Position numbers and translations under genes: made by a program. The notes beneath the pieces are model-generated. The model did no database searches. It was not told the origin of the DNA and saw nothing but the letters and a program-made list of their open reading frames with translations. Positions 18,440-48,708 of a stretch of 64,000 bases of DNA are shown here, in pieces. Position 1 is the stretch's first letter. Each line of letters begins with the position of its first letter. Origin of the DNA: Anaerolineae bacterium (GTDB lineage Bacteria; Chloroflexota; Anaerolineae; VGOG01); the NCBI GenBank assembly GCA_034431315.1, contig DAOUDK010000004.1:15975-79974 (forward strand), given 5' to 3'.

Positions 18440-18455
18440 GAATGAAGGAGTCCCA

Positions 18456-25876: not shown

Positions 25877-27907
25877 TTATGGAGCATGGCCTTTCAGTTC
25901 TCCTCGGACGGTCTGATAGAGCTCCTCGGCCTTGAGCGCCTGCAAGGTGTAGCAGGGAGCGCCCAGGGCATCGGCCAGGTGCTGGGCCAGGCCATGATCG
26001 AACGAGGAGTGTTCCATGTTGATGACCGCCGAGCGGATGTTGCCGCGCTTGATGAGGTCGGCGACTTTGAGCCCTTCTTCCTGAGCTGTGAGGTCGGTCA
26101 TGGAGACGTTGCCCGCGCCGTCGGTCAGGAGGATCATCAAGGGCATCACCTCGGGGTTGCGGCGAAGCTCTCTCTGGCACACGCGATAGGCCAGGAGTAG
26201 CCCACTGGACAGCGGGGTCTTGCCGCCTACGGGGATGTCCTGAAGGGCTTTCTGGGCTAACTCCACGCTGGAGGTGGGGGGCAGGACTAACCTGGCTTCG
26301 TCTTTTTGGAAGACCACGAGTCCCACCTGGTCCCGGCGCTGGTAGGCGTCGTTGAGGAGAGACATGATGGCCCCTTTGGTGGCCACCATGCGCTCTGCAG
26401 CGGCCATGGACCAACTGGCGTCAACTACGAAGAGGATGAGGTTGGCCGCTCGCCGCACTCGCACCTTGCGCTGCAAATCCTCATCGGCGATGGCCAGGGC
26501 CAGATTGCCGCGCTGGCGGTGGATTTGGTGAGGGGCGGCATATCGAAAAGTTGCGTCGAAGGCGATGTCGTCGCTCTGCCCTTTGGCCGGCCGGCTTTGG
26601 ATGTAGCGCCCTCGCTTGCGTTCGGTCCTGGTGAAACTGCGCTTGCCCGCACTGTTCCTGGTCAGTCGGTCCAGTGGGGTCTCCACGCGCCTGGGCTTGA
26701 ACACCGGGCCTATGGACGCGGGCATGTCCGCCTGCCGGATGTAGGACAGGGGCACGGGATCCGCCTGGTGGCCCTTGAGCGGAGTCGTCATGTTGGTCTC
26801 ACCGACTGGGGTAGTTGAGGTTTCGGGTTTCGAGTTTTGGGTTTCGAGTAGGGAGGCCGTGTCTTGGTGGGCCAACTCTGTGGTTACCTGGGCCAGCTTT
26901 TCCTTCAGGTCATGGAGCTCTAGCTCCGCCTCTTCCTGGAAAGGCTGTCTCTTCAGGCGATGGGGTAGGGCCAGCTCGGCCGCTGCCAGGATATCGGTTT
27001 CGTTGATCCGACGTCGCCCGGCGAAGGCGGCGTGGGCCAGGGCCGTCTTGAGGATGACGATGTCCGCCCGGTGCCCGTCCACCGACAGACTCGCCATTAG
27101 CTCGGTGATGGCCAGCAGATCCCTCGGGGCATATCGGACCTCGGGCAAAAGCTCCCTGGCCTGGGCGATCTCGCGCGAGAGTTGCTCCTCGTGAGGTTCC
27201 CATTCCTCCCGAAAGCCTTCAGGGTCTTGTTCAAATTGGACGCAGCGCTCCAGAATCTCCACCCGGGCTCTGGTATCGGCGATGCCTTTGATCTCCACGC
27301 ACAGGGAGAAGCGGTCCAATAGTTGCGGACGTAGCTCCCCTTCTTCGGGGTTCATGGTGCCCACCAGGATGAAGCGGGCGGGGTGGGAGAAGGAGATGCC
27401 TTCTCGTTCCACCACGTTCACGCCCATCGCCGCCGAGTCCAGCAGCAGGTCAACCACGTGGTCATCGAGCAGATTGACCTCGTCTACATAAAGCAAGCCG
27501 CGGTTGGCAGCGGCGAGCACCCCTGGCTCGAAGTGGCGCTCGCCGCGCTTGATGGCTAACTCGATGTCCAGGGTGCCCACCACCCGGTCCTCGGTGGCGC
27601 TGACAGGCAAGTCCACAAAGCGAGTTCGGCGACAAGCTACGGGTAGCTCTTCACCGCGCTCGACTCGCTCACGGCAGTCATCGCAGAGGGTCTCAAGCTG
27701 CTCAGGATTGCAGTTGAAAAGACAATCGGCCACCACCTCGATCTCTGGCAACAGGGCGGCCAGGGCCCGGGCTGCGGTGGACTTGGCCGTGCCCCGCTCT
27801 CCGCGGATCAACACTCCGCCGATCTGGGGGCTGATGGCGTTCAGGATGAGGGCCATCTTCATCTTCTCTTGGCTGACGATGGCTGTGAAGGGGAAAATAG
27901 TTGGCAT
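25877..27907 (-). CDS. Mg/Co-chelatase-like AAA+ ATPase fused to a vWA domain (BchI/BchD-like)
   Basis: Walker A GERGTAKST, LYVDEVNLL, GTMNPEEG, RPQLLDRF, MIDAS DASWSM. Confidence 0.9.
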   Translation of the reverse strand: MPTIFPFTAIVSQEKMKMALILNAISPQIGGVLIRGERGTAKSTAARALAALLPEIEVVADCLFNCNPEQLETLCDDCRERVERGEELPVACRRTRFVDLPVSATEDRVVGTLDIELAIKRGERHFEPGVLAAANRGLLYVDEVNLLDDHVVDLLLDSAAMGVNVVEREGISFSHPARFILVGTMNPEEGELRPQLLDRFSLCVEIKGIADTRARVEILERCVQFEQDPEGFREEWEPHEEQLSREIAQARELLPEVRYAPRDLLAITELMASLSVDGHRADIVILKTALAHAAFAGRRRINETDILAAAELALPHRLKRQPFQEEAELELHDLKEKLAQVTTELAHQDTASLLETQNSKPETSTTPVGETNMTTPLKGHQADPVPLSYIRQADMPASIGPVFKPRRVETPLDRLTRNSAGKRSFTRTERKRGRYIQSRPAKGQSDDIAFDATFRYAAPHQIHRQRGNLALAIADEDLQRKVRVRRAANLILFVVDASWSMAAAERMVATKGAIMSLLNDAYQRRDQVGLVVFQKDEARLVLPPTSSVELAQKALQDIPVGGKTPLSSGLLLAYRVCQRELRRNPEVMPLMILLTDGAGNVSMTDLTAQEEGLKVADLIKRGNIRSAVINMEHSSFDHGLAQHLADALGAPCYTLQALKAEELYQTVRGELKGHAP

Positions 27908-29383: not shown

Positions 29384-31768
29384 TTAGCGTTGACTGAGCA
29401 CCATCACAAAATGGGCCACTGCTTGGCCGGCTTCTTCCAACAGCTTGGAATCCAGGTGATCTAGCGTGTCGGCGGGTGTGCCGGAGAGGTCGTCTCCCGG
29501 CCGAGTGACCGCCAGGGCCTGGTAGGACTTGTGGGCCGACGGCTCACTCAAACTCAGGCGGCTGCTGCTGGAGATAAAGAAGAATCGCCATTCGTCCAGC
29601 TTCTCTGTGCGCACCCCGAAACGCCGTGCGCCCTGGTCGAAGGCGCGGGCCAAGCCGGACCCTGCTTCCAACCTGGCCAGGCGCGGTTCGCCCGCTCCCA
29701 GCCCGTGGAGGATCACTGCCGTCCAGACGTCTGACCGTTCGGTCGGCAGGGCGGGAGAGTTGACGAACTGACTTCCTCCCCCTTCGTCAAAAGCCGCAAA
29801 GACCACCGTCCGCTTGGGCACCAACTCCAGGTCGTGCAGCAGCCGGGCCGTCTCCAGCATCACGGAGACCCCACTGGCGTTCTCATCCGCGCCGGGGTAG
29901 ATCACCCCATCTTGCGGAGGCGGCCCGGTGTAGGTAGCGGCCACAAGGATACGCTCTCCCCGACTTTCCATGTCCAGACCGGGGATGTAGCCGACGACAT
30001 TGAGCGCCGGTACCTCCTCGTAGACCAGGCCATACGTCAGCCGCACCCGCAGACCGGTGGGCAGCATAATCTGCTCCCCCGTCTTCATCGCCGCCTGGAG
30101 TTCCTCCAGATCCACCCCTGCCTGCGCCAGCAGTTGGCGGGCGGCGGATTCGCCGATGAGGAGGTTGGGGAAGGGGGGCAACTGGGTTACGCTCAAGTAG
30201 CTGTCGTGGTCGAAGGGGGGAGGCCGATCGTTGCGCGCCAGTCGGTCATCTGGGACCAGTCGCAGCACCGCCGCATAGAGTGAGTGCATACCACTAACGC
30301 TTATAGGAATGTATGGCAGGTCTTCCTCCGGGTCGAGCAGCAATATAACACCCCCTCCGAATATCACGTCACGGTCTATGTTCCCCTGCACCCTCAGTTC
30401 CGCCTCCGTGATTCCCTCTGCGTGGAAGGCCTGCCAGGGGTCGAGGGAGATGCCGCCGGTAAGCCGCAGTTGCGGTTCCCCGCCCACGTCCAGCACTTCC
30501 AGGGTCGGCGCGGCGGTGACCCGACCACGGATGGCAGTGTAGGTCTGGAAATAGCTATTATCGGTCGTGCCGGGGCTCAATCCCGGCATGGTGGTCAATC
30601 CCGCCTGCTCGAACTGGGAGACGATATAGTCAGCAGCCCTGGCTGCACCAGTCCCGCCGGTGGGCCGCCCCTCCAACTCAGGTTGGGTGAGGTAGGCGAT
30701 GTCGTCCCAGGCCCGGTCCACGTCGAACTGGCCGGCCAGTTGGGCGAACTGGGCTTCGATGCCGGCGTTTTGCAGGAGAGCGCGAGCGCCCAGGAGGAGC
30801 AGCGCGACTACCATGAGAAAGCGGATCACCGACCAGCCGCTGGGGTGGAACCGCCCCCGCTCAATGAACCGCTGCAGGCCATAACCGAACAGGTTGAAGC
30901 CCAGGATGGCGACGAAGAAGGCCAGGGCCGGGGCCATGGGAAACCAGGGGTACGAGCGGAACCAACGCCAGGAGGAGCCCAGCATCGCCCCCCAGTCGGG
31001 CACATCGAAGTAGTGCAGTACCTCCCACGTCGCCTCGTCGAAGACGGTGCGCCCACCGCCGATGAAGATGTGGACGAAGCCCAGTTCCCCCAGCAGGAGC
31101 AGCGCGGCCCCCATCTCCAGCGCCGCCAGTGCCAGGAGGGTCGGCAGGAGGTTGGGCAGGACGTGGCGGCTGAGGATGCTGGCTGAGTTGAGCCCCACTG
31201 CCCGCGCGGCCATGATGTAGAGTTTGTTGCGGATGGTCAGGACGTGGCCTCGCACGATCTGGGCGACCTCCCCCCAGCCGACCAGCGAGAGGGCCACGAT
31301 GAAGGCAGCCTGCCCCCGACGGACGCCGATGGCGGAGACCACCAGCATGGCCAGGATCAGGCCTGGGATGGCTGCCAGGAGCTCGGTGACGGCGGCTACG
31401 GCTCGATCAAAGAGGCTGCCCGGCCACCAGCCAGCGAAGGCGCCGAGCACCAGCCCCAGCAGCAGCCGCACGACGGTGGCCACGAAGGCCATGACCAGGG
31501 TAACTCTGGCTCCGTAGAGGAGAAGGGAAAGCTGACACCGCCCCTGGTCGTCCGTCCCCAACGGGTAGAGGTCGCTGGGAGGGAAGGGTGCTTTGTGCAG
31601 TTCCCCATCAATCCACTGCAAGCGCTCCACCAGGTAGGGGTTGTGGGGAGCCAACTCCGGCCCCAGAACGGCTACCAGGACGAGGAGGATGACTAACACG
31701 GTGCCCACGACAAAGTAGTAGTCCCGCACTGCCCGGCCCAGCCGCTGCCAGAAGGTTATGGGTTTCAT
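29384..31768 (-). CDS. OppC/DppC-type permease fused to a PA-containing, degenerate M28 peptidase domain
   Basis: LGTDDQGR, EAA-like loop (YIMAARAVG), RHVLPN, PDWGAML; then RAWDDIAYL..LEGRPTG and PGADENASG, with other Zn ligands replaced. Confidence 0.85.
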   Translation of the reverse strand: MKPITFWQRLGRAVRDYYFVVGTVLVILLVLVAVLGPELAPHNPYLVERLQWIDGELHKAPFPPSDLYPLGTDDQGRCQLSLLLYGARVTLVMAFVATVVRLLLGLVLGAFAGWWPGSLFDRAVAAVTELLAAIPGLILAMLVVSAIGVRRGQAAFIVALSLVGWGEVAQIVRGHVLTIRNKLYIMAARAVGLNSASILSRHVLPNLLPTLLALAALEMGAALLLLGELGFVHIFIGGGRTVFDEATWEVLHYFDVPDWGAMLGSSWRWFRSYPWFPMAPALAFFVAILGFNLFGYGLQRFIERGRFHPSGWSVIRFLMVVALLLLGARALLQNAGIEAQFAQLAGQFDVDRAWDDIAYLTQPELEGRPTGGTGAARAADYIVSQFEQAGLTTMPGLSPGTTDNSYFQTYTAIRGRVTAAPTLEVLDVGGEPQLRLTGGISLDPWQAFHAEGITEAELRVQGNIDRDVIFGGGVILLLDPEEDLPYIPISVSGMHSLYAAVLRLVPDDRLARNDRPPPFDHDSYLSVTQLPPFPNLLIGESAARQLLAQAGVDLEELQAAMKTGEQIMLPTGLRVRLTYGLVYEEVPALNVVGYIPGLDMESRGERILVAATYTGPPPQDGVIYPGADENASGVSVMLETARLLHDLELVPKRTVVFAAFDEGGGSQFVNSPALPTERSDVWTAVILHGLGAGEPRLARLEAGSGLARAFDQGARRFGVRTEKLDEWRFFFISSSSRLSLSEPSAHKSYQALAVTRPGDDLSGTPADTLDHLDSKLLEEAGQAVAHFVMVLSQR

Positions 31769-32682
31769 ACTGCACCCACCTCCGAGGCTCGCAGCCGGGG
31801 ATCCACCAGCGGATAGAGGATCTCCAGCAACAGGTTAACCAGGACGAAGAGAAGGATGAGGGGCAGGGTCATGCCGATCACTGCGGTAGTATCTTGGGTC
31901 TCAATGCTCTTCAGGAGACGCAGGCCGATCCCTGGCCAATTGAAAATGTATTCGACGATAGGGAGGGCAGCCAGGCTGAAGCGAAGGGAGACCCCCACAG
32001 TGGTCAGGATGGGCACCCCCGCGTTGCGCAGCACGTGTCGCAGGAGGATCAGGCGGGGAATCAGTCCTTTGGCGGTGGCGGTGCGGATGTAGTCGGACTC
32101 CAAAATCTCCACCAGGGCGTTGTAACTGAGGCGTGTCACGGCAGCGGCGGGGCGGGCCGCCAGCACCAGGCTGGGCAGGAGCAAGTGCAGGTCCCACCCA
32201 AAGCCGGAGATGGGGATAATGTGCCTGCTGGTGGTCTGGTACAGCCAGACGCCGAGCCAGATCAGCAGCATGGCGGCGAAGAAACTGGGAGTAGAGGTGC
32301 CCAGCACTGAGACGAAGAGCAGCAGCTCGGAGAAACGCCTGGCTCGCCGGAAGGCAGCGGCAATCCCCAGGCTGAGGCCCACCAGCGCCGCCAGCGTCAG
32401 CGCGAAGGCCAACAGACCCAGGGACTTTGGTAGAGCGCGGCCCAGATCAGTGGTTACAGGCGTGCTGGCGATGGCGCGGCGGCCGGACGCGATGACTCCC
32501 AGGTCACCACGGGCCAGGCTCTTCAGGTAATCAGCAGTGAACCCTGCGGCGGAAGGGACGGCTGATGGCAACGCTTGCAGGTTCCCCTCCTGCCCCAGGT
32601 TTATGGCCAGTGCTACCAGGAAGACCAGAGCGATCAAGAGTATGGGTATAGAAAGGAGCCGTCCGGCGAAGCGCAAAGGCAT
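31765..32682 (-). CDS. OppB/DppB-type permease
   Basis: DYIRTATAKGL, RHVLRNA, VEYIFNWPGIG. Confidence 0.88.
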   Translation of the reverse strand: MPLRFAGRLLSIPILLIALVFLVALAINLGQEGNLQALPSAVPSAAGFTADYLKSLARGDLGVIASGRRAIASTPVTTDLGRALPKSLGLLAFALTLAALVGLSLGIAAAFRRARRFSELLLFVSVLGTSTPSFFAAMLLIWLGVWLYQTTSRHIIPISGFGWDLHLLLPSLVLAARPAAAVTRLSYNALVEILESDYIRTATAKGLIPRLILLRHVLRNAGVPILTTVGVSLRFSLAALPIVEYIFNWPGIGLRLLKSIETQDTTAVIGMTLPLILLFVLVNLLLEILYPLVDPRLRASEVGAV

Positions 32683-32705
32683 ATTAACTCCTCCTTAAGT
32701 AGTGA

Positions 32706-32799
32706 GGGTCTTTGGGAATTGGCGTGAATAGCAGGCCGGAATCCCCAACTTGTTGGGGTTTGTCGCGCCGCCCCCCCCTCAACAAGTTGGGGACTCCAA
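32706..32799. repeat. TCTTTGGGA / CCCCAACTTGTTGGGG element, copy 2 (right end missing)
   Basis: Aligns with 25592-25682. Confidence 0.85.
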
Positions 32800-32807
32800 G
32801 GCGTACT

Positions 32808-33341
32808 TCATTCCCTGGTTACGGTCCCCTCACTCCATTGGCTGACGAATTCCTGATCGGAGATGGAGCCGCTGGCCCATGCCTCCAGGCTGGCCCAGTC
32901 AATGACGATCACTCTGAGCCCTACTTCGCCCTCTCCGCCAGGCATAACAGCCAGGCGCATTCCGCCGGTGATGGGAGGCTGCACCCTGGCCATGGCCCGG
33001 GCCGCAGCCAGGGCGATAAGTGTTGTCTGGGCCTGAAATACGCTGCCGTCAACGTCGTAGGAGCTTGAGTAGCGAATGGACGCCGACCGTGGCTCCCCCC
33101 TTACGGTGATCCTCAACGTATCGGGGACTACTCCGCGAGCAGTTGCCTCCTCTTTAATCAGCGCTATGGCCTCGGCGTCTGTCAGAGGGCCGGGGCTAAG
33201 AGTAGGCGTCCGGGTGGGGGCAGACGTTGGAGTGATGGTCGGAGGCGGGGCGCTCGTGGGGGGCGGCGAGGGGGCCTGGCAGCCCATGCCCAGCCAGCCA
33301 AGGAGGCAGAAAACGACGCCGACGGCAGCAATGTGCTTCAT
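32808..33341 (-). CDS. Lipoprotein of unknown function
   Basis: MKHIAAVGVVFCLLGWLGMGC lipobox, then a Pro/Thr linker and a globular domain. Confidence 0.7.
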   Translation of the reverse strand: MKHIAAVGVVFCLLGWLGMGCQAPSPPPTSAPPPTITPTSAPTRTPTLSPGPLTDAEAIALIKEEATARGVVPDTLRITVRGEPRSASIRYSSSYDVDGSVFQAQTTLIALAAARAMARVQPPITGGMRLAVMPGGEGEVGLRVIVIDWASLEAWASGSISDQEFVSQWSEGTVTRE

Positions 33342-33406
33342 AAATCCGTGCCTGTTTTGAGTTTCGCGTTGCAATTTGACTCGCAACCCCAAGCTCGAAA
33401 CGCGAA

Positions 33407-35191
33407 TTACCCCATGACAGGAGCCACGTAGATGATCAGGGTTAGGAGCGAGTCAACAGCGGCGTAGATGAAGTAGGCGACGAAGATGGATTGGCTGCGT
33501 GCGCGTTTCAGGTAGGCCCACGCCGCCCCCGCAGACAGGGCAGCCAGAAGCACTGGAACGATCCACCGCCCCAGGACAAGGCCCAGTAAGGGAGATAACA
33601 TAGAGACTAACGGAGACCGGCTCAACAGATCGGAGAGGAGGAAGATCTTGATTCCCAGTTGCAGGATCATGGCCACACCGAGGGCCCTGCGGCCGTGGGG
33701 GTCCGAGATCTCGGACTCCCGGGTAGTCAAAGCGAAAAGGATAAGCCATCCGAAGGGAATGATTACCCAATTCAAAACGATAGGTACAAAGAAGATAGCG
33801 GTGAAAAAGCTCATGACCGCGCCGAGGATTTTATCCACGACCTCGTAAGTGGTAACACGGTTGAGCGTCTCTTTGGCCTGGGATGAGGTGCTGGCATAGA
33901 CAACGTGGTAGCTCTGGAAACCGGCTGTGTCAAGCCATACCAGGTGAAGATTCCCCTGGCCGTCAATGGCCACGCTGGGCTGCACCGAAGCGCCACGGCT
34001 CTCATTGACGATTTCTTGCCCTTCGACCTGCTCTGCCCCCACGTCAATGGCCGCGATTTGGAGCGTCTCCAGGTTGCCTGGGCCGGCAACCTGGGTGAAG
34101 CAGACCAACACCTGGTATGCTGGCTGGCCCTCCAGGAATTGTGGCTGGCCTGTCAGGCTCGGGTCAACGCCCCGAACGTGAACTGCCTCACTCGTCACCT
34201 TAGGGGGCGAATAGTCGAACGTTGCCGTGCCTTCGGGCCGGCTCAAGGCGGGCTGGGGGAAAGCCTGGTAGAAAGTGAAATCTATGACCTCGCCCCGTTC
34301 GCGCACCTCCAGTACCCAGGCCAGGTAGACCGAACTCTCGTCCAGTCCCAGCCACGGCCCGTCGAACGCGGCGCCTGCCGTCGGTCTGCCAAGCAAGCTC
34401 ATCTGGATCAGGGGTTCGGTCGCCAAGATGTCTGGCCCCAGCGCCCGGCGCTGGGGATCGTAGACAGCGTAGTGGAAGTCGGGCTCGTCCGGCTCCAACT
34501 CTACTCTCCAGGCCAGGTGCACGAAACCCTGGCGGTCTATCTGGGCCGACGGTAGTAGACCGTCGGGGATCAGCATTTCTGCCGGGACAACGATCGTTCC
34601 CGACCAGTCCAGCGCAGCATGGTAGCAGCCGGGGCGGATGTAAACGTTATCAGACCAAAAGAGCTCTATGGTCTGGCCAGCAGGATTGAGCACCATCGAA
34701 CTGTGAGACACCCGCCGTTCGGGCGGCGAGAGAACGGTTGCTTCTTGGAGCACCTCGCCATCGGCCGACAGACGGGCGTAAAAGAGCTGCGTGCTTCGCT
34801 CCTGCCTGTCCAGCCAGGTAAGGTGCAGTTGGCCTGTGGTGTCCATTAGAAGTTGAGGCTTCATGGGGGAGTTGATGCGCAGGTCGAGGGGGGCCTGGAC
34901 GATCACCTCAGCCCGCTCGTTCAAGCGGGCAAAGTGCAGCTCATGCTCAGGCCCGACCCACACCATGAAGTTATTCCCTGCCTCGTCCACCTGCAAGGCC
35001 ACCTGGTTGTTCAGGATGGCTGTGCCCAGCAGCTTTCCGTTGCTCCACTGGTCCGAAGCGCGCGGCGTAGTAGTAGGGGTCAGCCCGCAGCCCGTGGCCA
35101 CCAGAGCCAGCAGGATCAGCGCCACCGCCGAGGCCAGGGGCAGTCGAAACCAGGTATTTCTACCTCGCGCCATTTGTCTCACTGTCGCCAC
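33407..35191 (-). CDS. Lipoprotein-like membrane protein with a beta-rich ectodomain and C-terminal TM helices
   Basis: LVATGC lipobox, repeated GxxHLxW blade-like motifs (GQLHLTW, GFVHLAW, GNLHLVW), about four C-terminal TMs. Confidence 0.7.
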   Translation of the reverse strand: MATVRQMARGRNTWFRLPLASAVALILLALVATGCGLTPTTTPRASDQWSNGKLLGTAILNNQVALQVDEAGNNFMVWVGPEHELHFARLNERAEVIVQAPLDLRINSPMKPQLLMDTTGQLHLTWLDRQERSTQLFYARLSADGEVLQEATVLSPPERRVSHSSMVLNPAGQTIELFWSDNVYIRPGCYHAALDWSGTIVVPAEMLIPDGLLPSAQIDRQGFVHLAWRVELEPDEPDFHYAVYDPQRRALGPDILATEPLIQMSLLGRPTAGAAFDGPWLGLDESSVYLAWVLEVRERGEVIDFTFYQAFPQPALSRPEGTATFDYSPPKVTSEAVHVRGVDPSLTGQPQFLEGQPAYQVLVCFTQVAGPGNLETLQIAAIDVGAEQVEGQEIVNESRGASVQPSVAIDGQGNLHLVWLDTAGFQSYHVVYASTSSQAKETLNRVTTYEVVDKILGAVMSFFTAIFFVPIVLNWVIIPFGWLILFALTTRESEISDPHGRRALGVAMILQLGIKIFLLSDLLSRSPLVSMLSPLLGLVLGRWIVPVLLAALSAGAAWAYLKRARSQSIFVAYFIYAAVDSLLTLIIYVAPVMG

Positions 35192-35278
35192 AATCCTACC
35201 TCCATTTATGCACAGGCGGAGAACGTAGTTCCCCGCCTGTGAAAAAGTATTATCGAGACTTCGAGCCCTACACGCTGC

Positions 35279-36274
35279 CTACGTGGTGCCCCGCATCTGC
35301 GGATCCAGCGCGTCGCGCAGGCCATCGCCCAGGAAGTTGAAAGTCAGCATTACCAGGGAGAGCGTCACTGCTGGGAAGACGAGCAGATGTGGGTTGGCCC
35401 TGATGGCTCGCCAGCCGTCGTTGATCATCTGGCCCCAACTGGGGAAGGGAGGCGGCACGCCCAGGCCGATGAAGCTCAGGATGGCCTCGTACATGATCAG
35501 CCCTGGCATGTTCAAAGTAAGGGTCACGATGATGGGTCCCAAACTATTGGGCAACATATGGCGGGCGATAATGGACACATCTCTGGCCCCGATCATGCGC
35601 GCTGCCTCTACGAATTCCTTCTCCCGAAGGGAGAGGAACTGTCCACGCACCAGGCGCGACATGCCCATCCAGCTCACCAGCCCAATGCCCAGTACCAGGT
35701 TGCGTATAGCCCCGAGGCCGGTCGTGGAACCGAGGATAACCATGATCAGGATGATGAAAAGCAAGGTGGGAAGACCATACAGGATGTCCACGAAGCGCAT
35801 CATCACAGTGTCCACGCGGCCGCCCAGATAGCCCGATATGGATCCATAGATCATGCCGAAGGTCATGATTGTCAGAGAGCAGAAAACGCCTACGGCCATA
35901 GATATGCGGCCGCCGTATACGATCCGACTGAACACATCGCGTCCATATTTGTCGGTGCCCATGATGTGCGGAAACCCACCCTCCTCTGTACGCTGCAGGC
36001 TGGGGCTGGTCCTGGTGTTGTAGAAATCGGTGTCCTGGTAGTCGTAAGGGGCCAACAGAGGTTGGCTCTCACGGCCCAGGGCCCAGGATATGAAGGCATC
36101 GTCGGCGAAGATGGCAAATACGATAACGATGATGAGGAAGATGCCACTTACGACGGCCGCTCTGTTGCGCAGCAGCCGCCGCCAGGCATCTCGCCACAGG
36201 CTCTCTGGCGGGCGTGTGAATTCCCATTCCGAAGCCCTTTTTCTACGCTCAGCTATCGCAACTGCTTCACTCAT
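35279..36274 (-). CDS. oppC: Oligopeptide ABC permease OppC
   Basis: MGTDKYGRD, EFVEAARMIGA, PSWGQM. Confidence 0.92.
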   Translation of the reverse strand: MSEAVAIAERRKRASEWEFTRPPESLWRDAWRRLLRNRAAVVSGIFLIIVIVFAIFADDAFISWALGRESQPLLAPYDYQDTDFYNTRTSPSLQRTEEGGFPHIMGTDKYGRDVFSRIVYGGRISMAVGVFCSLTIMTFGMIYGSISGYLGGRVDTVMMRFVDILYGLPTLLFIILIMVILGSTTGLGAIRNLVLGIGLVSWMGMSRLVRGQFLSLREKEFVEAARMIGARDVSIIARHMLPNSLGPIIVTLTLNMPGLIMYEAILSFIGLGVPPPFPSWGQMINDGWRAIRANPHLLVFPAVTLSLVMLTFNFLGDGLRDALDPQMRGTT

Positions 36275-36308
36275 AGTGTCTCCTTGAATTAGACTCAACC
36301 CACCTGTT

Positions 36309-36419: not shown

Positions 36420-37433
36420 TTAGTCAAAACGTATGCGCGGATCCAGGAAGGCGTAAGAGATGTCCACCAGGATATTCATGAACACCAGCAGCACGGCATA
36501 GACCAACATGGTGCCCATGATCAGCGTGTAGTCACGGTCGGCTATGCTGGAGACGAAGAAGCGCCCGATGCCGGGTATCGAAAAGACGTGCTCGATGATG
36601 AAAGAGCCCGTCAACCAGGCGGCCATGAGGGGGCCCAGAACTGTGGTCACAGGGATCAGCGAGTTCTTGAGGGTATGGCCAACGATCACCGCTCGCTCGC
36701 GCAGGCCCTTGGCTCGGGCGGTGCGGACGTAGTCCTGACGGATCACCTCCAACATGCTGGCCCGGGTCAGGCGGGCGATGATGGCCGACCCTCCAGAGCC
36801 CAGAGTGATGGCCGGCAGGATCATGTGGCTGAGCCAGTCACTGAAGTTTTTTGTGCCCCAGCGGGCCAGGGGCAGGGCTGGCAGATCGTGCTGGTTCAGC
36901 CAGAGCATGGACAGCATGAATATCAGCCCCAGCACAAAGTTGGGGATGGATACGCCCACCATGGCGAAGAACATGCCAACGTAGTCAACGATGGTGTTCT
37001 GTTTGAGAGCGGAGATGATGCCCAGAGGAATGCCTATGCCCACCGCTATGAGGGTGGCGAAAATGCCCAACTGGGCCGAGACCGAGACGGCCGATTTCAC
37101 TATTCCGCCATCGAACAGCACGTTGTTGATGGTGCGTCCCCGATATTTGTAGGAGGGACCCAAGTCACCTCCCAGCAGGCCGTGCTTTCCAAAATCTCGT
37201 ATGTTACCGGTGTCAACGATGTCGCCTATCATGTAGCGGATGTATTGCTTCCAGGTTGGCTCGTCGAGGTGATAGCGGGCCTCAAAGTTGGCCCGGATCT
37301 CCGGGGACATCGGCCGGCCCTCGGTGCTAAAGGGCCCCCCCGGCACCAGCTTCATGGCGCTAAAGACGACCACGGTAACCATCAATAAAACGGGCACCAT
37401 CCACATAAACCTTCTGATGATATAGGTAGTCAT
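36420..37433 (-). CDS. oppB: Oligopeptide ABC permease OppB
   Basis: PGGPF, DYVRTARAKGL, EHVFSIPGIG. Start at ATG 37433. Confidence 0.92.
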   Translation of the reverse strand: MTTYIIRRFMWMVPVLLMVTVVVFSAMKLVPGGPFSTEGRPMSPEIRANFEARYHLDEPTWKQYIRYMIGDIVDTGNIRDFGKHGLLGGDLGPSYKYRGRTINNVLFDGGIVKSAVSVSAQLGIFATLIAVGIGIPLGIISALKQNTIVDYVGMFFAMVGVSIPNFVLGLIFMLSMLWLNQHDLPALPLARWGTKNFSDWLSHMILPAITLGSGGSAIIARLTRASMLEVIRQDYVRTARAKGLRERAVIVGHTLKNSLIPVTTVLGPLMAAWLTGSFIIEHVFSIPGIGRFFVSSIADRDYTLIMGTMLVYAVLLVFMNILVDISYAFLDPRIRFD

Positions 37434-37480
37434 GTTTCTCCTTCTCCATTGGCTTCTGGGTGCTGGCAGACTCAGAGGAG

Positions 37481-37550
37481 CCAAAATTGCTCTGAGGGGA
37501 TTGCCAAATCCCCGCTTTTGGCCTGGATTTGGCAATCCAGGCCAAGCAAA
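37481..37550. repeat. 70-bp double-hairpin dispersed repeat, copy 2
   Basis: 62/70 identical to 11887-11956. Confidence 0.9.
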
Positions 37551-37569: not shown

Positions 37570-37614
37570 TAGCAAAAGAGCTATGTAGCTCTCACCCCGA
37601 GAGCTACATAGCTC
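37570..37614 (-). terminator. Intrinsic terminator/stabiliser after oppA
   Basis: Perfect stem GAGCTATGTAGCTCTC / GAGAGCTACATAGCTC followed by TTTT on the minus strand. Confidence 0.75.
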
Positions 37615-37626
37615 AGGGGTTCTAGC

Positions 37627-39447
37627 TTACTGCAGACTCCAGTGGTAGAGCGGGGGCGAGCCGAAAGGCGGATACTCGAAGTTGACACCCTCCTTGACCA
37701 GGGTGTTCCGTTCGTAGCCCATGATGGGGATGATCGCCACTTCATCCTCACACAGGATCTTATCGGCCTCAAAGTAGTAGGCCTCGCGCGCCTCGGTGTC
37801 GAACGAGGACCCGGCCAGATCCATCAACTCGTCGAACCGCTCGCTCTCCCAACCGGTGTACTGGAAGGTTGACGAGGGTGCGAAGACCACCTGGAGCTGG
37901 TTCTGGGGATCGCCATAGTCCATCACCCAACCCATGCGGTAGGCGTTGAACTCGCAGGCCGCCAGTTCTTCCTTGCTGTTGTTGCACTGATCGAGGTAGT
38001 CCAGGTAGACGGCCCACTCGTTGGTGCGAAGCTCCACGTTGATGCTCAGGTGCTCCGTCCACATGGCAGCCACGGCCTCAAGGATGTCCTCGTTGCCTCG
38101 GTTGAACCAGATCCTCAAAGTCGGGAAGCCCTCGCCGTCCGGGTACCCGGCCTCGGCCAGGTAGGCCTGGGCCGTCCCAGGATTGAAAGTGTGCCCGCAC
38201 TCGCCCCACGGCTGGTGGCCCAGGATCCTGGGCGGCGTGGTGCACGAGAGAGCGGTACGCCACGGTGTGTTCAGCACGTTGTCGATGATGACCTTGCGGT
38301 CAATGGCCGAGGCCAGGGCCTTCCGCACCAGCACGTTGTCCGTGGGCGGCGCCAGGACGTTCAGCCCAACGTAGTACACCCCAGGGCGCGGCAGGATACG
38401 GAGTTCCTTGCTGAGGACGGGGTCGGCCAGGATGCGCGGCATATCCTCGTTCGGATAGCCACCTTCGCCGGTGGTGTGGGTTTCATCGTTTTCGTAAAGA
38501 GCCAGCGAGGTGGCCTCCTCAACGATAATGGGGAAGGTGATCTTCTCGATCGCGACGGTGTCGGCATTCCAGTAGGTGGGGTTCTTCACCAGTCCCACTT
38601 CGGCCTCGTGATCCCAGTAATCCAGCAGGTAGGCGCCGTTGCTCACGTAGTTGCCCGCCTCGGTCCACTGGTCTCCGTACTGCTCAACGAGGTCCAGGCG
38701 GACGGGGTAGAAGGTGGAGAAGGGCAAGACGGTCTCGAAGTAAGGCGTGGGCGCCTTGAGGGTGACTTCAAAGGTGTAGTCGTCCGGGGCCTTGACACCC
38801 AACAACTCAGGATCGTCAATCTCACCCGTGTTGAACTCTTCCGCCCCCTCCATGTCGTACATCAGCCAGGCATACTCGGCCGCCGTCTCCGGCAGCATCA
38901 GGCGGACGACACCGTCAACGAAGTGCTGGGCGATGACGGGCACGCCGTCGGACCAGACAGCGTCCTTGCGCAGGTTGATGGTGTACACCAGACCGTCGTC
39001 GGAGACCGTGAAATCGGTGGCTCCTGCGGGCTGGATGGAGCCGTCGCCTCGGTACTCGAACAGGCCCTCGATGCACTGATGGATGATCATGTGCGAGGTG
39101 GTGTCGGTGGCCAACTGGATATCCAGCGTGGGCGGCTCAGTGCCGAGGGGGTACCAAAGCCCCTCTAGCTGCACCTTGGGCGGCACAGGCGTTGGGGGTA
39201 TGGGCGTGGCGGTGACCACCACTTCCACTTCCTTCTCTACTTCCTTGATCACCTCTTTCTCTACTTCCTTGATCACCTCTTTCTCGACGGGCACCTCCTT
39301 CTCGACTATCACCGTCTCGACGACCTTCACCTCGACGGGCACCTCCTTTATGACCTCCACCACCTCTGGCGGAGCGCAGGCCGGGAGTATCATGGCGGCT
39401 ATTGCCACCAGGGCGATCAAGGTCATCCACTTCTTGTTGCTAAACAT
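37627..39447 (-). CDS. oppA: Oligopeptide-binding lipoprotein OppA with a VIKEV repeat stalk
   Basis: Lipobox ILPAC; SBP family 5 motifs (EGLFEY, WSDGVPV, SNGAY). Confidence 0.92.
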   Translation of the reverse strand: MFSNKKWMTLIALVAIAAMILPACAPPEVVEVIKEVPVEVKVVETVIVEKEVPVEKEVIKEVEKEVIKEVEKEVEVVVTATPIPPTPVPPKVQLEGLWYPLGTEPPTLDIQLATDTTSHMIIHQCIEGLFEYRGDGSIQPAGATDFTVSDDGLVYTINLRKDAVWSDGVPVIAQHFVDGVVRLMLPETAAEYAWLMYDMEGAEEFNTGEIDDPELLGVKAPDDYTFEVTLKAPTPYFETVLPFSTFYPVRLDLVEQYGDQWTEAGNYVSNGAYLLDYWDHEAEVGLVKNPTYWNADTVAIEKITFPIIVEEATSLALYENDETHTTGEGGYPNEDMPRILADPVLSKELRILPRPGVYYVGLNVLAPPTDNVLVRKALASAIDRKVIIDNVLNTPWRTALSCTTPPRILGHQPWGECGHTFNPGTAQAYLAEAGYPDGEGFPTLRIWFNRGNEDILEAVAAMWTEHLSINVELRTNEWAVYLDYLDQCNNSKEELAACEFNAYRMGWVMDYGDPQNQLQVVFAPSSTFQYTGWESERFDELMDLAGSSFDTEAREAYYFEADKILCEDEVAIIPIMGYERNTLVKEGVNFEYPPFGSPPLYHWSLQ

Positions 39448-39865: not shown

Positions 39866-40408
39866 CTAGCCACCATACATCTGCGCCCGCAGACGGGCCG
39901 AGAGACGGTAGACCAACACTGCCAGGGTCACCACTATTTCCAGAAACCACCAGACGATGGCCAGCGGCGTGAAGACGACCAGCCAGCGCCCGGAATGTAG
40001 ATAGTAGTGCGCATCAGGCGGCGAGACGACCCACCGCTCTTCCACCTGCTCGACGTAGTGCACGTGGCGCTTATAGGTGTCCATCTCGAAGTACAAGTAG
40101 GAGATGTAGCGATCACCGTGCTCCCACAGCATGACGAAGATCAGCTTGGGACTCGTCTTGAACGCCGCCAGCCGCCGCAATCCCTGCAGTTCGGCCAACA
40201 ACGCTCGATCATTGGTCTGCAGCGCGCCCTCCAACGCCCTTGCCACCGCGCCCGGCGTGTCATACCGTTCGGCGTAGGTGCCGGAGAAATAGGCTGGATC
40301 GTAGCGCCTGAGACCTTGCACCTGCACCACCAGCACAAACAGCCCCATCAGCACCAGTGGCAGCAGCGCCGCCGCCAGGACCCAGCGGAGATTAACGTAT
40401 GGCTTCAT
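39866..40408 (-). CDS. Hypothetical membrane protein (two TMs)
   Basis: 180-aa ORF from ATG 40408, N- and C-terminal hydrophobic segments. Confidence 0.6.
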   Translation of the reverse strand: MKPYVNLRWVLAAALLPLVLMGLFVLVVQVQGLRRYDPAYFSGTYAERYDTPGAVARALEGALQTNDRALLAELQGLRRLAAFKTSPKLIFVMLWEHGDRYISYLYFEMDTYKRHVHYVEQVEERWVVSPPDAHYYLHSGRWLVVFTPLAIVWWFLEIVVTLAVLVYRLSARLRAQMYGG

Positions 40409-40656
40409 TCCACCGATCTCCTCATTCTCTACCTTTTCCTGAGCCGCGGGTCGGCAACTTCGTGTAACCCTCTGGAGACGAAATGAATCTGGCCATTGGG
40501 TTTCCTTTGAGGTAGGAGTGCGGATGCAAGTCCGCTCCATAAACAGGCTTGCGCCGTTCGGCTGAGCTCACGGCCAAAGCCTGCACTCCCCCAAAACACA
40601 TACGCCCGACAGACCTTGCCGGGCGTGATAGATCAGGTAACTTCTCAACCGAACCG

Positions 40657-41649
40657 CTAAGCTTTATAGCACGCCACCATGTGGCCGCCTGTCTTGTCCT
40701 CCAGCGGCGGATGGTCGTTGTCCCGGCAGTAATTGTCGGCGATGAGGCAGCGTTCGTAGAAGCGGCATTGCGGCGGTGGGTTGACGGGCTTGGTGACACC
40801 ACCCTTGATCACCACCGGCTTTCGCGTAAAGGTCGGGTCTGGCACCGGCACGGCTGACAGCAACGCCTTGGTGTAGGGATGCTGGGAATGATGCAAGAGT
40901 TCTTCCGTCTCCGCCATCTCGACGAGCTTGCCCAGGTACATCACCGCGATCTTGTTGCACATATAGCGCGCGACGGCCAGGTCGTGGGTGATGTAAAGAT
41001 AGGTGACTTCTAATTTCTCACCCAGCTCTTGCATCAAATGCATCACACCGGTGCGGATCGACACATCCAGCATCGAGGTGGGCTCGTCGGCGACGACGAA
41101 CTGCGGATTCACCACCAGGGCGCGAGCGATGGCGACGCGCTGGCGCTGCCCGCCAGAGAGCTCGTGGGGATAGCGGAACAGAAAACTGGCGGCAGGCGTG
41201 AGGCCCACTATCTCCAAGAAGTGGGCCACCATCTCCTCTCTCTCCCTGACGGTCCCTATGCCCTGCACGTCCAGTGGCTCGGCGACGGTGTCATAAATGG
41301 TCAGGCGCGGATTCATGGACTCGTAGGGATCCTGGAAGATCATCTGGACGATTTGCCGGAATTCCTTCAGTCTCTTCCCCCGCAGCGAAGCGATGTCCAC
41401 CACCCCCTGGCCGGTGTCCAATTCGATGCTGCCTTCCGTGGGGTCAACTAGCCGGGTGATCAGTTTGCCGGTCGTGGTCTTGCCGCAACCGGACTCACCC
41501 ACCAACCCCACGCTCTCCCCATAGCGGATCTGCAGGTTCAACTGGCTCACGGCGTGTACAAAGACGTCAGCTCTGCGGAACACACCCGCCCCTACCGGGT
41601 ACAGCTTGGATAGATTCTTGATGTCAACCAGGACCTTGGTATCCTCCAT
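40657..41649 (-). CDS. oppF: Oligopeptide ABC ATPase OppF
   Basis: [18 protein letters not shown]-terminal Cys cluster (CRFYERC..C..C). Confidence 0.93.
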
Positions 41650-42620
41650 TAGCCTTCTCCTCCCGGGTGCCAACAGGCTGCAAAGTGCCCGCCATCGTGG
41701 TCTTTGAACTCGGGGACCTCCTGGCTGCAGATCTCGGTGGCATAGAGACAGCGCGGGTGGAAGCGGCATCCCGGCGGCGGGTCAAGCAGGTCTGGCGGCT
41801 CGCCCGGCAACATCACCAACTCGGTCTTGGGGCCGACGATGCTGGGAAAGGCGGACATCAGCCCCATCGTGTAGGGATGGATGGGACGGTGAAAGATGGC
41901 TTCTGTTGACGCCAGTTCCACCAGGCGGCCGGCGTACATCACCCCCACGCGCTCGCTGACCTCGGCGATCACCGCGACGTCGTGCGAGATGTAGATCATG
42001 GCCATGTTCAACTTCTCCTGGATCTCGCGGATGCGCTTCAAAAGCGCATCTTGGACGATCACGTCCAACGCGGTAGTGGGCTCGTCGGCGATGATGAGGT
42101 CCGGATCGCAAGAGAGGGCCATGGCGATTATCGCGCGCTGGCGCATCCCACCGCTGTACTGGTGTGGATACTGATTCTTGAAGGCGGGATCCAGCCCGAC
42201 CAGCTCGAAGAGATGTTCCACTCGCTGGTCCATCTCCGCCTCGCTCAATTGCGGCATATGCTGCTGCATGGCCTCGAGAATCTGGTACTCGATTGTGTAC
42301 ACCGGATTGAGGGCGTTCATGGCGGCCTGGAACACCATCGAAATGTGGCGCCAACGGAACTTGCGCACCTGCGCATAGGATAGCGGCACCAGGTCGGTGG
42401 AGTTTAACAGAATCTGTCCGTCAATGATGTCGGCGTTGTCTGGAAGCAGCTTGAGCAGCGAGAGGGCGATGGAAGTCTTGCCGCATCCCGACTCGCCCAC
42501 CAACCCCACAGACTCGCCGCGGGCTACAGCAAAGCTCACATCATCCACTGCATAGACAGGACCTTTGCGGGTCATGTAGTGCATAGTCAGGTTTTTTACT
42601 TCAAGAACATTATCTGTCAT
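41649..42620 (-). CDS. oppD: Oligopeptide ABC ATPase OppD
   Basis: [25 protein letters not shown]. Confidence 0.93.
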
Positions 42621-42636
42621 TACTAGCCTCTGTAAC

Positions 42637-42669
42637 AGAAACCAGGTTTTTCCTAAAAACCTGGTTTCT
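42637..42669. repeat. REP-like hairpin AGAAACCAGGTTTTT-CCT-AAAAACCTGGTTTCT
   Basis: Perfect 15-bp stem between oppC and oppD. Confidence 0.8.
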
Positions 42670-42679
42670 TTATTGAGAT

Positions 42680-43678
42680 CTAACGTCGGCGCAACCTGGG
42701 GTTCACCACCTCGTCCAGGGCGCGGCCCGTCAGATAGAACGCCGAGCACAGCAGGGTGATGGCCAGGCTGGCCGGAAACAGCAGCCACCAGGTGTCAAAG
42801 CGCAGAATGTATCCAAACACCTGCGTGGTGTTGATCATGAGCCCCCAGCTCATCTGGATGGTCGTCAGCCCAAAGAAGGAGAGTATGGCCTCGATAAAGA
42901 TCGCGTTGGTGACGACGAACATCATGTAAAGCAAGGAGATGGGCAACAGGTTGGGGAGCATATGCTTGCGGATGATGTGGGCATGGCCGCCGCCGGCGAT
43001 GCGCGCCGCCTCGATGTACGGCTTGACCTTGATCGTCAATGCCTGGGACTTGATGACGATCGTCGTGCCGCCAAAGCCGGACAGTAGCCCGATGACGAGC
43101 GCCAGTTGGATCATGCCCACGTCCATCAGGGCGCCGAGGACGATCAGGATGGGTAAAAAAGGCACCATGATTACCAGGTCGGCCAGCCGCATAAAGAATG
43201 TGTCCACGAGCCCGCCATAATAGGCCGACACCGCTCCGATGGTGGTGGCGATCACCACGGTCACCACCGCCGAGAGGATGCCCAAAACGAACTCAAAGCG
43301 GGTGCTATACATAAGTTGGCCGAGCACGTCCCGGCCCAGCGGGTCCGTGCCCAGCAGGTGGCGCGACGACGGCGGAGCCGGATGGTAAGCGATCTCCAGA
43401 TCAAAACCGTTGACGGGGTCGTAAACGCGGCGTTGCCAGACCGGTTTTTCCACCAGGCCGAACGTCACCTTGTCCGTGCTCATCAGGATGGGGTGGGCCA
43501 GGGCGAACAGGCCAAAAAAGAGGATCACCCCCAGCCCGACCAACCCGACGGGGTTCTCGGCGAACAGCGCAAAATTGGTGCGCAGCGATTTGCCCCACAG
43601 ACTCAGCCGTACACGCCACAGAGGAATATAGATAGCCTCTGTCGGGGTCGCAGCTTCGGGCCGCGTTACTTCTGTCAT
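42680..43678 (-). CDS. oppC: Opp/Dpp permease C
   Basis: LGTDPLGRD, YIEAARIAG, MSWGLM. Confidence 0.92.
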   Translation of the reverse strand: MTEVTRPEAATPTEAIYIPLWRVRLSLWGKSLRTNFALFAENPVGLVGLGVILFFGLFALAHPILMSTDKVTFGLVEKPVWQRRVYDPVNGFDLEIAYHPAPPSSRHLLGTDPLGRDVLGQLMYSTRFEFVLGILSAVVTVVIATTIGAVSAYYGGLVDTFFMRLADLVIMVPFLPILIVLGALMDVGMIQLALVIGLLSGFGGTTIVIKSQALTIKVKPYIEAARIAGGGHAHIIRKHMLPNLLPISLLYMMFVVTNAIFIEAILSFFGLTTIQMSWGLMINTTQVFGYILRFDTWWLLFPASLAITLLCSAFYLTGRALDEVVNPRLRRR

Positions 43679-43722
43679 ACTCTACTCCTGTTTTGCCGTA
43701 TGAGGCCGGGATCTGATGATCC

Positions 43723-44877
43723 CTAATGATAACGAATGCGCGGGTCGAGAAAGGCATAGCCAATGTCGGCCACCAGGTGGCTGACCAGCGTCATCATGCC
43801 CAGTATCGTCAACACACCCATGGCCAGCGGGATGTCTTCAGAGGTCGCCGCTTTTAGCAGCGTCAGCCCGATGCCCGGCCACGAAAAGATGGTCTCGGTG
43901 ATGATGCCGCCGCTAATGACACCGCCGATACTGAACACCAGGCCGGTCCACACCGGCAGCAGCGCGTTCCTGGCGGCGTGCTTGTCGCGCACCGTTTTGT
44001 CGGGCAACCCCTTGGCCCGCGCCGTCAGGACATAGTCCTCGCGCAGCGTCTCCAGCATGCTGGTGCGCATCAGCAGCATGGTGCCGCCGTAGCCGATCAG
44101 CGTCACGGTCAGCACCGGCAAGATGAGGTGGCTGACGATGTCCCACGCCAGGGGCGCCCACCCGCTACCCAGCCAATACAACAGCACGCCGCCCGCCGGG
44201 AGCAGCAGGCTGGCAACCCGCAGGGGCAGGCGCCGCTCCCGCGGCACCCGGTTGGAGGCCAGGAACCCCAGGAACGCCACCAGCAGAGCGATCAGGGCGG
44301 TCAAGAAAATCCTGCTAAAGATGGCGTTGGCCGAAGGGATGTCGGGATCGAGCCACTCCAGTGGGTCGAGGAACTTGCCCGCCGGGAGCCAGTCCAGCTT
44401 GACCGCAAACAGCCAGATCATCATCAGGGCGAACCAGGGGGTAAAGACCGTGTACAGCGTCACCCCGGCTATCGTGGAAGAGTACTCGACAAACCCGCCC
44501 CGGCGCCAGGCCAGGACCTTGCCGGTCATATAGCCGGCCCAGAACGAGACGATGGAGGCCGTGAGGAACAACACCACCGTGCGCGGCAGTCGCTCCTTGA
44601 TAATGTCTAGCACCGGCCTGGGGTACATCACGAACGAAACACCCAGGTCGCCTCGGTAAAAGTTGCCGATATACGTGAGCATCCGCTCCAACGGTGGGCG
44701 GTCCAGTCCCAACTCGGCACGCAGCCGCTGGGTCTCGGCAGGGGGAATCTCAGGGTTCAGGGTCAAAAGATCGGCGATATCACCAGGCTGGGCGTCAATC
44801 AAAAAGTAGGTGATCATCTGGAACAGCAGCAGGGTGACGAGCATCTGCAGCAAGCGTTTGCCCAAGAATCTCCACAT
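43723..44877 (-). CDS. oppB: Opp/Dpp permease B
   Basis: DYVLTARAKGL, ETIFSWPGIG. Confidence 0.92.
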   Translation of the reverse strand: MWRFLGKRLLQMLVTLLLFQMITYFLIDAQPGDIADLLTLNPEIPPAETQRLRAELGLDRPPLERMLTYIGNFYRGDLGVSFVMYPRPVLDIIKERLPRTVVLFLTASIVSFWAGYMTGKVLAWRRGGFVEYSSTIAGVTLYTVFTPWFALMMIWLFAVKLDWLPAGKFLDPLEWLDPDIPSANAIFSRIFLTALIALLVAFLGFLASNRVPRERRLPLRVASLLLPAGGVLLYWLGSGWAPLAWDIVSHLILPVLTVTLIGYGGTMLLMRTSMLETLREDYVLTARAKGLPDKTVRDKHAARNALLPVWTGLVFSIGGVISGGIITETIFSWPGIGLTLLKAATSEDIPLAMGVLTILGMMTLVSHLVADIGYAFLDPRIRYH

Positions 44878-45061
44878 ATCCTGCGCTCCTCTCTGGGGGA
44901 GGCAAACGGAACGAGAGTCCGTTGAATGAATCCAACGTCCGTTATAGAAAACCTGCTCAAGCAGGTTAGTATATCTGTTTACCCGTTTTAACGGGTTTCC
45001 GTAGTAGCAGCCCAGAATTCATTCCTGGGCTGCTGGGCGAATCCGCGTAGTGGAAACATAC

Positions 45062-45090
45062 GGGAGCGGGCGGGTGACCCGCCCGCTCCC
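45062..45090 (-). terminator. Strong GC hairpin downstream of the second oppA
   Basis: GGGAGCGGGCGGG-TGA-CCCGCCCGCTCCC; the U-tract is weak. Confidence 0.55.
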
Positions 45091-45141
45091 ATTCTCACAT
45101 AGTGCGTTGCGTTAGCTACCGCTCAGAGGACCCCGCAGCCA

Positions 45142-48699: not shown

Positions 48700-48708
48700 T
48701 TGTGCCTC

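Follow-up and report, generated by a model that had tools for sequence, protein, structure and literature searches.

An OppC-type permease fused to an M28 pseudo-peptidase domain in a conserved opp operon of Anaerolineae

What use does a peptide transporter have for a peptidase domain that appears unable to cut? The question is raised by positions 29384-35191 of a 64,000-nucleotide stretch of an Anaerolineae genome (contig DAOUDK010000004.1), which we refer to as the window. Four co-directional genes on its minus strand encode, in order of transcription, a 594-residue membrane protein with a beta-propeller, a 194-residue small lipoprotein-like protein, a 305-residue OppB-like permease (OppB′) and a 794-residue OppC-like permease (OppC′) that continues into a PA/M28 peptidase-fold domain. 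An earlier reading of these letters, made without database searches (the sequence-only reading), took the group to be an Opp-like transporter that carries a dead M28 domain and has no binding protein or ATPase, and proposed either that the pseudo-peptidase is a built-in substrate receptor or that the complex was repurposed for export, sensing or envelope assembly. The gene order and the fusion are present as it described them. The lack of partners is true just within the four genes, as oppA-oppB-oppC stand 87 bp upstream and an oppD-oppF pair heads the operon in relatives.

The operon and its candidate motor

We mapped the window proteins onto related loci by tblastn. In L005, L011, L012, L013, L019, L021, L025, L026 and L028 the order is oppD-oppF-oppA-oppB-oppC, propeller, small lipoprotein, oppB′ and fusion, with no small-lipoprotein match found by tblastn in three of these nine loci (L012, L013 and L028); L006, L007 and L015 show the same order from oppA onward. 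This arrangement persists down to about 57% identity between the M28-fold ectodomains. Positions 29384-35191 are the distal part of a conserved nine-gene Anaerolineae operon that holds one ATPase pair, one solute-binding protein (SBP) and two permease pairs. The oppA gene keeps its position among related loci, and its family-5 SBP belongs to the same conserved operon in 12 of them, which contradicts, for this clade, the premise that the fusion has no dedicated SBP. The canonical oppC lies on the same strand as the propeller gene, and even in the two most distant relatives (L012 and L013) its orthologues are 55% identical. Throughout the family oppB′ precedes the fusion gene in nearly all two-gene loci and is absent beside solo or tandem extra fusion copies; in the window the two genes overlap by 4 nt (ATGA).

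Two pairs of ATPase genes lie upstream of the fusion. The products of the farther pair, oppD and oppF at 47716-49701, are 67-93% identical to the head-of-operon ATPases of the nine full-order loci and of L042, whereas those of the nearer pair (41649-42788 and 40657-41769) are only about 45% identical to them. In the relatives oppF is directly followed by the oppA orthologue, with no second opp system between. Because orthology favours the distal pair, we conclude that in the window oppF and oppA have been moved apart by the insertion of a complete second opp system (39866-47307). The nearest ATPases (40657-42788) belong to that inserted system and were rejected as partners on the same comparison, and the pair at 47716-49701 is the likely motor for both permease pairs, to judge from synteny. 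The suggestion that the fusion pair borrows ATPases from upstream opp genes is supported by synteny, with a correction as to which genes these are.

The fusion protein and its M28 domain

The membrane part of the fusion is that of an importer of the OppC type. Pfam matched OppC_N (28 bits) and BPD_transp_1 (66 bits), which together cover residues 6-305, and Peptidase_M28 at residues 606-788 (36.6 bits against a cut-off of 21.3). The best NCBIfam matches of the two permeases are Opp4C/NikC and Opp2B/Opp3B, all under the equivalog cut-offs, and no match to FtsX or MacB_PCD was found by Pfam in any of the four window proteins. OppC′ has retained an LGTDxxGRD loop and an EAA-type coupling loop, AARAxGL(x5)LSRHVLPN, in which G192, L204 and N206 are invariant across the fusion family and P205 is nearly so. 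OppB′ has a counterpart, TATAKGL...LRHVLRN, and retains the long outer loop between transmembrane helices 1 and 2 (TM1-TM2). Since these loop motifs are kept, the pair should dock an ABC ATPase, and we expect that OppB′/OppC′ should form an ATP-driven translocator. The possibility that this second pair is a recent duplicate of the canonical one was rejected, as the two share just 24% identity between C-type and 32% between B-type permeases.

By hydropathy and charge, the fusion has the six helices usual for OppC, then a cytoplasmic linker (GLQRFIERGRFHPSGW, with three Arg) and a seventh helix at residues 314-332. Because TM7 follows a six-helix OppC core and the charges obey the positive-inside pattern, residues 336-794 are placed outside the cell, which settles in favour of an extracytoplasmic domain a point of topology that the sequence-only reading had wanted checked. 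The linker motif GRFHPSGWS between TM6 and TM7 (30830-30856) is the most conserved stretch of the whole protein, and G305, R306, F307, P309 and G311 are invariant in 116 of 116 family members. Distant forms have an NRYT-type linker in its place.

AlphaFold2 (AF2) models residues 340-794 at a predicted local distance difference test score (pLDDT) of about 90. When this ectodomain model was searched with Foldseek, the matches were PA-containing M28 aminopeptidases with the same domain order (Aneurinibacillus AM-1, 2ek8; P. aeruginosa PaAP, 8acr; B. subtilis BSAP/YwaD, 6hc6), which are the best structural matches, together with the transferrin receptor (1cx8), whose chains are among the top hits, and GCPII, with E values of 1e-18 to 1e-20. 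The ectodomain has the M28 alpha/beta fold with an inserted PA domain, and it does not have the Venus-flytrap fold of a periplasmic binding protein.

The known aminopeptidases of this group keep five zinc ligands (His, Asp, Glu, Asp, His) and a general-base Glu, set in the pattern His, Asp, Glu-Glu, Asp, Tyr-His. A search of the PDB by sequence alone aligned just the PGADENASG segment of the ectodomain, so closer homologues were needed to map the ligands, and we aligned it to the window's own intact M28 (18399-20174) and to intact and tethered relatives. Relative to the intact M28, AHVD has become ATYT, the in-register GEE is EGG, NLDM is ILHG and YH is SG, while in the change from PGADDNASG to PGADENASG only a carboxylate is retained. 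Two of the motif pairings in the sequence-only reading were one residue out of register; its conclusion that the zinc site is lost holds.

A census of 116 full-length family members gives the same picture. At position 612, the first His of AHVD, not one member has His, the commonest residues being Thr (42), Ser (32), Pro (10) and Asp (9). The general-base position, 663, is occupied by Gly in 71, Met in 16 and Arg in 10, and the adjacent ligand Glu (position 664, the Glu152 position) is Gly in 115 of 116. At position 688, the second Asp of NLDM, there is His in 47, Gln in 24, Asp in 18 and Glu in 12, and the Tyr-His pair at 762-763 is Ser in 113 and Gly in 107, respectively. The bridging Asp of PGADDNASG (position 629) is Glu in 81 and Asp in 25, a carboxylate in 106 members. 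Judged by these alignments, four of the five zinc ligands and the catalytic Glu are gone from the ectodomain, with only the bridging carboxylate left, and on this residue pattern it cannot be a canonical co-catalytic zinc peptidase. Around the former pocket an acidic cluster of D628, E629 and D661 with Y613 stays conserved, and few positions are conserved better than the loop PGAD(E/D)NASG and the acidic residues close to it.

Relatives of the fusion and possible roles of the second permease pair

A search of 5.8 billion proteins returned 239 homologues of the fusion. The best 120 of these are mostly full-length at about 770-830 residues, with a few truncated, are 57-85% identical to the query and have the same two Pfam domains; those that carry a name come from Anaerolineae or from Chloroflexota metagenome bins. 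A scan of species-representative genomes yielded 27 fusion loci, all of Anaerolineae type but one contig. The odd one, L017 (SHMX01000014.1), is filed as Candidatus Thorarchaeota and has a solo fusion whose identities to the two halves of the window's protein are 71% and 49%; the contig is most likely misbinned Chloroflexota. The family is found almost only in Anaerolineae. That the fusion stems from misassembly, occurs just once or is decaying can be dismissed with near certainty, as the homologues come from independent assemblies, the frame is uninterrupted, and the alignment shows strong purifying selection throughout, ectodomain included. The sequence-only reading had asked whether the architecture recurs, and it clearly does.

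Beyond the close family, an ectodomain profile matched proteins in 103 of 301 genomes of the class, a count that includes peptidases not attached to permeases. In a set of 1.84 billion proteins the profile matched 229 representatives at E <= 1e-30, and their lengths fall into groups near 780, 1200, 1450, 1650 and 2100 residues. Example proteins were fetched and domain-scanned to define the architectures. Proteins of about 1170-1210 residues join OppB, OppC and M28 in a single polypeptide; their genes stand alone among unrelated genes, with no SBP gene nearby, once beside an M32 carboxypeptidase (L037), and one B-C-M28 gene is found in the single-contig genome G150. Proteins of about 1440 residues, in five genomes of at least four genera, add an ATPase in front (ATPase-OppB-OppC-M28) and are encoded after a MacB_PCD/FtsX permease. 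Their nucleotide-binding domain (NBD) is of the LolD/MacB/FtsE type (196 bits to LolD), so that this form, unusually, joins an ATPase in the style of type VII systems to the membrane domains of a type I importer. A 1672-residue protein (OppB-OppC-M28-M28, L035:7742-12760) has a dead and then an intact M28 domain in tandem, an 822-residue fusion is followed by a 1624-residue M28-MA-M28 peptidase (L032:5296-14231), and proteins of about 2100 residues combine a DUF418 membrane domain with PA, two M28 domains and an MA peptidase. The fusion module can move between genomic contexts.

These relatives also bear on how activity was lost. Every tethered (first) M28 domain that we compared lacks the general base and the second Asp, whereas all six residues are present in the distal or free domains (L035b and L032_1624a), so that catalysis is lost where the domain is tethered to a permease. 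In L033, L035a and L036 the tethered domain retains the Zn1 triad (Asp, Glu, His), and such a triad without the general base suggests binding without cutting. Ecto-aminopeptidases of the lineage itself are the most likely origin of the tethered domain, with the window's intact M28 and the giant M28/MA peptidases of Anaerolineae representing the likely source.

Given these observations, we tentatively favour, as the best of several readings though hardly an assured one, that OppB′/OppC′ forms a second type I translocator, highly diverged, which draws on the same OppDF and carries the dead peptidase as a tethered ligand receptor. The single OppD/OppF pair of the operon, the only conserved motor in the window's clade, would power OppB′/OppC′ in competition with canonical OppB/OppC. 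The dead aminopeptidase would be a covalently tethered ligand-binding or docking module above the permease entrance, probably holding peptides, likely by the free N-terminus, in the acidic pocket formed by D628, E629, D661 and Y613; for some substrates it would act alongside OppA or in its stead. The operon's propeller protein and small lipoprotein would be accessory parts at the cell surface, not specific to the fusion pair. We favour this tethered receptor because the ectodomain is conserved, faces outward on a short tether by the permease mouth and has a non-cutting pocket, because relatives show links to peptide breakdown (the intact extra M28 of L035, the adjacent giant M28/MA peptidase of L032 and the neighbouring M32 carboxypeptidase of L037), and because members of the family occur alone, without an SBP gene; the stand-alone B-C-M28 genes are what a self-contained receptor would allow. 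The built-in receptor proposed by the sequence-only reading is to that extent plausible. A stricter version, in which the pair works without any SBP through its disarmed aminopeptidase and time-shares one OppDF with canonical OppABC, strikes us as rather doubtful.

Several points weigh against a tethered receptor. A normal OppA is present in the operon of this clade, so the ectodomain is not needed as a receptor, and we know of no type I importer with an M28-fold receptor in place of a Venus-flytrap one. The LolD/MacB-type ATPase fusions of five genomes point to export or mechanotransmission. AF2 predicted the membrane part poorly, leaving the placement of the ectodomain over the pore uncertain, and co-transcription of the fusion genes with the upstream opp genes is deduced from spacing and synteny only. 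The steps from a conserved dead pocket to peptide binding, and from a common operon to a shared OppDF, are ones we infer from sequence comparison.

Known systems offer partial parallels. The PepT family (TC 3.A.1.5: OppABCDF, DppABCDF, NikABCDE) has in common with this locus the OppB/OppC-type BPD_transp_1 permeases with an EAA-type coupling loop, and an operon with oligo_HPY-bearing OppD/OppF ATPases and a family-5 binding lipoprotein; the fusion pair shows the BPD_transp_1/OppC_N domains and coupling loop of such permeases. It differs in that one permease has TM7 and a 460-residue outward PA/M28 pseudo-peptidase, in that two permease pairs stand here against one ATPase pair and one SBP, and in that distant fusion relatives are encoded without an SBP or ATPase nearby. 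In GlnPQ and OpuA, importers fused to a substrate-binding domain, an extracytoplasmic domain is likewise tethered to the permease, which would give a high local concentration of receptor; however, the tethered domain here is an aminopeptidase fold and not a class I/II Venus-flytrap, and its binding role is putative. The closest functional analogies are with the transferrin receptor and nicastrin, dead M28 receptors or gatekeepers. Transferrin receptor 1, nicastrin and nicalin share the PA + M28 fold, the lost zinc ligands and the membrane anchor, and nicastrin is a substrate gatekeeper for a membrane machine. They are, however, eukaryotic, single-pass and not fused to transporters, with no sign of common descent beyond family M28.

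Two other explanations are each unlikely in our estimate, and to about the same degree. One holds that OppB′/OppC′ is an ordinary OppA-dependent second translocator whose M28 domain anchors it to the wall or S-layer, oligomerises or docks OppA. One OppA and one OppDF are conserved alongside the two permease pairs, the OppB′ TM1-TM2 loop and the OppC′ LGTDxxGRD loop are typical of SBP-dependent PepT permeases, the locus repeatedly gains further opp systems and SBP genes, and the genome has many family-5 SBPs as possible suppliers. However, the distant B-C-M28 genes are far from any SBP gene, and the conserved PGAD(E/D)NASG loop and acidic residues fit contact with a ligand better than a passive anchor. 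The other holds that the pair is a mechanotransducer or scaffold, in which ATP-driven permease motion is passed to the dead M28 domain and switches or organises surface peptidases, the propeller or envelope parts. FtsEX likewise works with EnvC, a degenerate, catalytically dead protein of peptidase fold that lies outside the membrane. Distant fusion relatives carry a LolD/MacB-type ATPase beside a MacB-like permease, joined in L036 by a 392-residue coiled-coil protein, which gives the proposed repurposing for export, sensing or envelope work some support. Tethered dead domains also adjoin intact M28 domains or giant multi-peptidases, and 38 of 44 genomes with the propeller match the PA/M28 profile against 103 of 301 overall, an enrichment not corrected for shared ancestry. 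On the other hand, the LolD-type fusion may merely serve the neighbouring MacB-like permease, and EnvC, with its M23 (LytM) fold, is a protein separate from its transporter. The window's permeases are ordinary type I importer folds with OppB/OppC signatures in an uptake operon with OppD/F-type ATPases; they do not have the four-helix, periplasmic-core build of FtsX, MacB and LolCDE (type VII), genes for which only neighbour distant relatives.

That the ectodomain is still a hydrolase, with a non-canonical site, we regard as very improbable. In its favour are the conservation of D628, E629, D661 and Y613 and the usual presence of His, Gln, Asp or Glu at position 688. Against it, neither His-ligand position has a His, the Glu152 position is almost always Gly, the general base is Gly, Met or Arg, and the loss is specific to tethered copies, as the intact paralogous domains of the same lineages show.

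The usual teaching is that a type I ABC importer always needs a Venus-flytrap binding protein. A widespread bacterial lineage that joins a disarmed aminopeptidase to the permease offers a possible exception open to experiment or, failing that, an accessory domain of a new type. A tethered M28 receptor would also be a bacterial parallel to the transferrin receptor and nicastrin, in which dead M28 domains turned into receptors. In sediments, digesters and sludge Anaerolineae abound as scavengers of peptides, and the system may matter for their uptake of protein breakdown products. A full-text literature search found no paper on the fusion architecture. What the window adds is a conserved nine-gene operon with concrete candidate partners (OppD, OppF, OppA, the propeller membrane protein and the small lipoprotein), an operon split by an inserted opp system, and a propeller module separated from the fusion module.

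Accessory genes and neighbouring features

Table 1. Genes and domains of the fusion locus, in window coordinates
Feature	Position	Strand	Evidence
Membrane beta-propeller gene, 594 aa	33407-35191	minus	no Pfam family matched
Small secreted/lipid-anchored protein gene, 194 aa	32808-33392	minus	no Pfam family matched
oppB′ permease gene, 305 aa	31765-32682	minus	BPD_transp_1, 113 bits (Pfam)
oppC′::PA/M28 fusion gene, 794 aa	29384-31768	minus	OppC_N + BPD_transp_1 + Peptidase_M28 (Pfam)
Fusion, permease part, residues 1-305, six TM helices	30854-31768	minus	Pfam, hydropathy, family alignment
Fusion, cytoplasmic linker GRFHPSGWS (residues 305-313) and TM7 (residues 314-332)	30773-30856	minus	hydropathy, census
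Fusion, extracytoplasmic PA + M28-fold domain, residues 336-794, zinc site gone	29387-30763	minus	AF2, Foldseek, ligand census
Canonical oppC, same operon	35279-36298	minus	Pfam; orthologues 72-92% identical, same position, most relatives
Canonical oppB	36420-37535	minus	Pfam and position in relatives
OppA-type family-5 binding lipoprotein gene	37627-39447	minus	SBP_bac_5 240 bits; OppA equivalog 238 bits
Inserted second opp system (oppA-B-C-D-F and 224-aa membrane protein)	39866-47307	minus	absent at that point in relatives
oppF, ancestral	47716-48699	minus	OppF equivalog match
oppD, ancestral	48709-49701	minus	OppD equivalog match

The 594-residue protein has an N-terminal signal with Cys, a beta-propeller at about residues 50-435 and four C-terminal TM helices in the AF2 model. 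The Foldseek neighbours of the propeller are seven-bladed lectins, polysaccharide lyases and sialidases, a set that is not function-specific. Full-length homologues occur in 44 of the 301 sampled genomes of the class. In G015 the propeller gene comes directly after oppD-F-A-B-C with no fusion pair behind it, and in six other genomes it stands alone. Conversely, L002/L016, L018 and L020 have oppB′ and the fusion with no propeller or opp genes nearby (within 10 kb where the flank suffices), and the same is true of L014, L022 and L029 as far as their shorter contigs reach; some distant loci carry a tandem or solo extra copy of the fusion. We therefore rejected the view of the four genes as one module. 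The cluster, whose conservation the sequence-only reading had proposed to check, is kept in close relatives, while elsewhere the propeller and the fusion pair travel separately. The 194-residue protein, which likely starts at the Met at 33341, has a Pro/Thr-rich stalk and no known domain and is secreted or lipid-anchored; it is conserved at 47-82% identity, in the close clade only.

A pattern scan for terminators and promoters gave nothing decisive, and it found no canonical or strong terminator between oppC and the propeller gene. A perfect hairpin of 9 bp (CACAGGCGG...CCGCCTGTG; 35215-35245, minus) lies in the 87-bp spacer there; it has no T tract and could be an element of RNA processing or stability or a weak terminator. 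The sole strong hairpin of the scan, 17 bp and then TTTTGCTATT (37578-37614, minus), comes just after oppA. Opp operons commonly have a hairpin in this place, an attenuating stem through which more binding protein than permease can be made.

Three genes downstream of the fusion is a putative cobaltochelatase gene (25877-27907, minus; TIGR02442, 781 bits). A link to metal uptake through this gene is unlikely, as no cobaltochelatase was found in the available sequence downstream of the fusion in any related locus. Among the distant forms, L036:8350-16113 and L038-L041 share a conserved unit of a MacB_PCD/FtsX permease of about 750 residues, a 392-residue protein and the 1440-residue NBD-B-C-M28 protein; in the one locus inspected (L036) the 392-residue protein, encoded between the other two, is adaptor-like by eye.

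The opp system inserted in the window begins with its own oppA (45142-47307), followed by oppB, oppC, oppD, oppF and the gene for a 224-residue two-TM protein (39866-40540), all on the minus strand, and its 7.4 kb separate oppD/oppF from the rest of the operon. Between the two OppA proteins flanking the insertion, similarity is confined to the first 27 residues (89% identity), which suggests recombination between leader/signal-peptide sequences. A third family-5 SBP gene (49729-51426, minus) lies upstream of oppD. L028 and L042 (G015) lack it there and have the orthologue of the window's gene at 51794-52390 immediately before oppD; this third SBP gene is probably another insertion. In L005 (13194-17578) and L019 (12619-20987) a further opp system was inserted immediately downstream of the fusion; the one in L005 precedes the NUDIX gene that in the window comes after the fusion. 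This locus appears to be a hotspot where opp cassettes are acquired.

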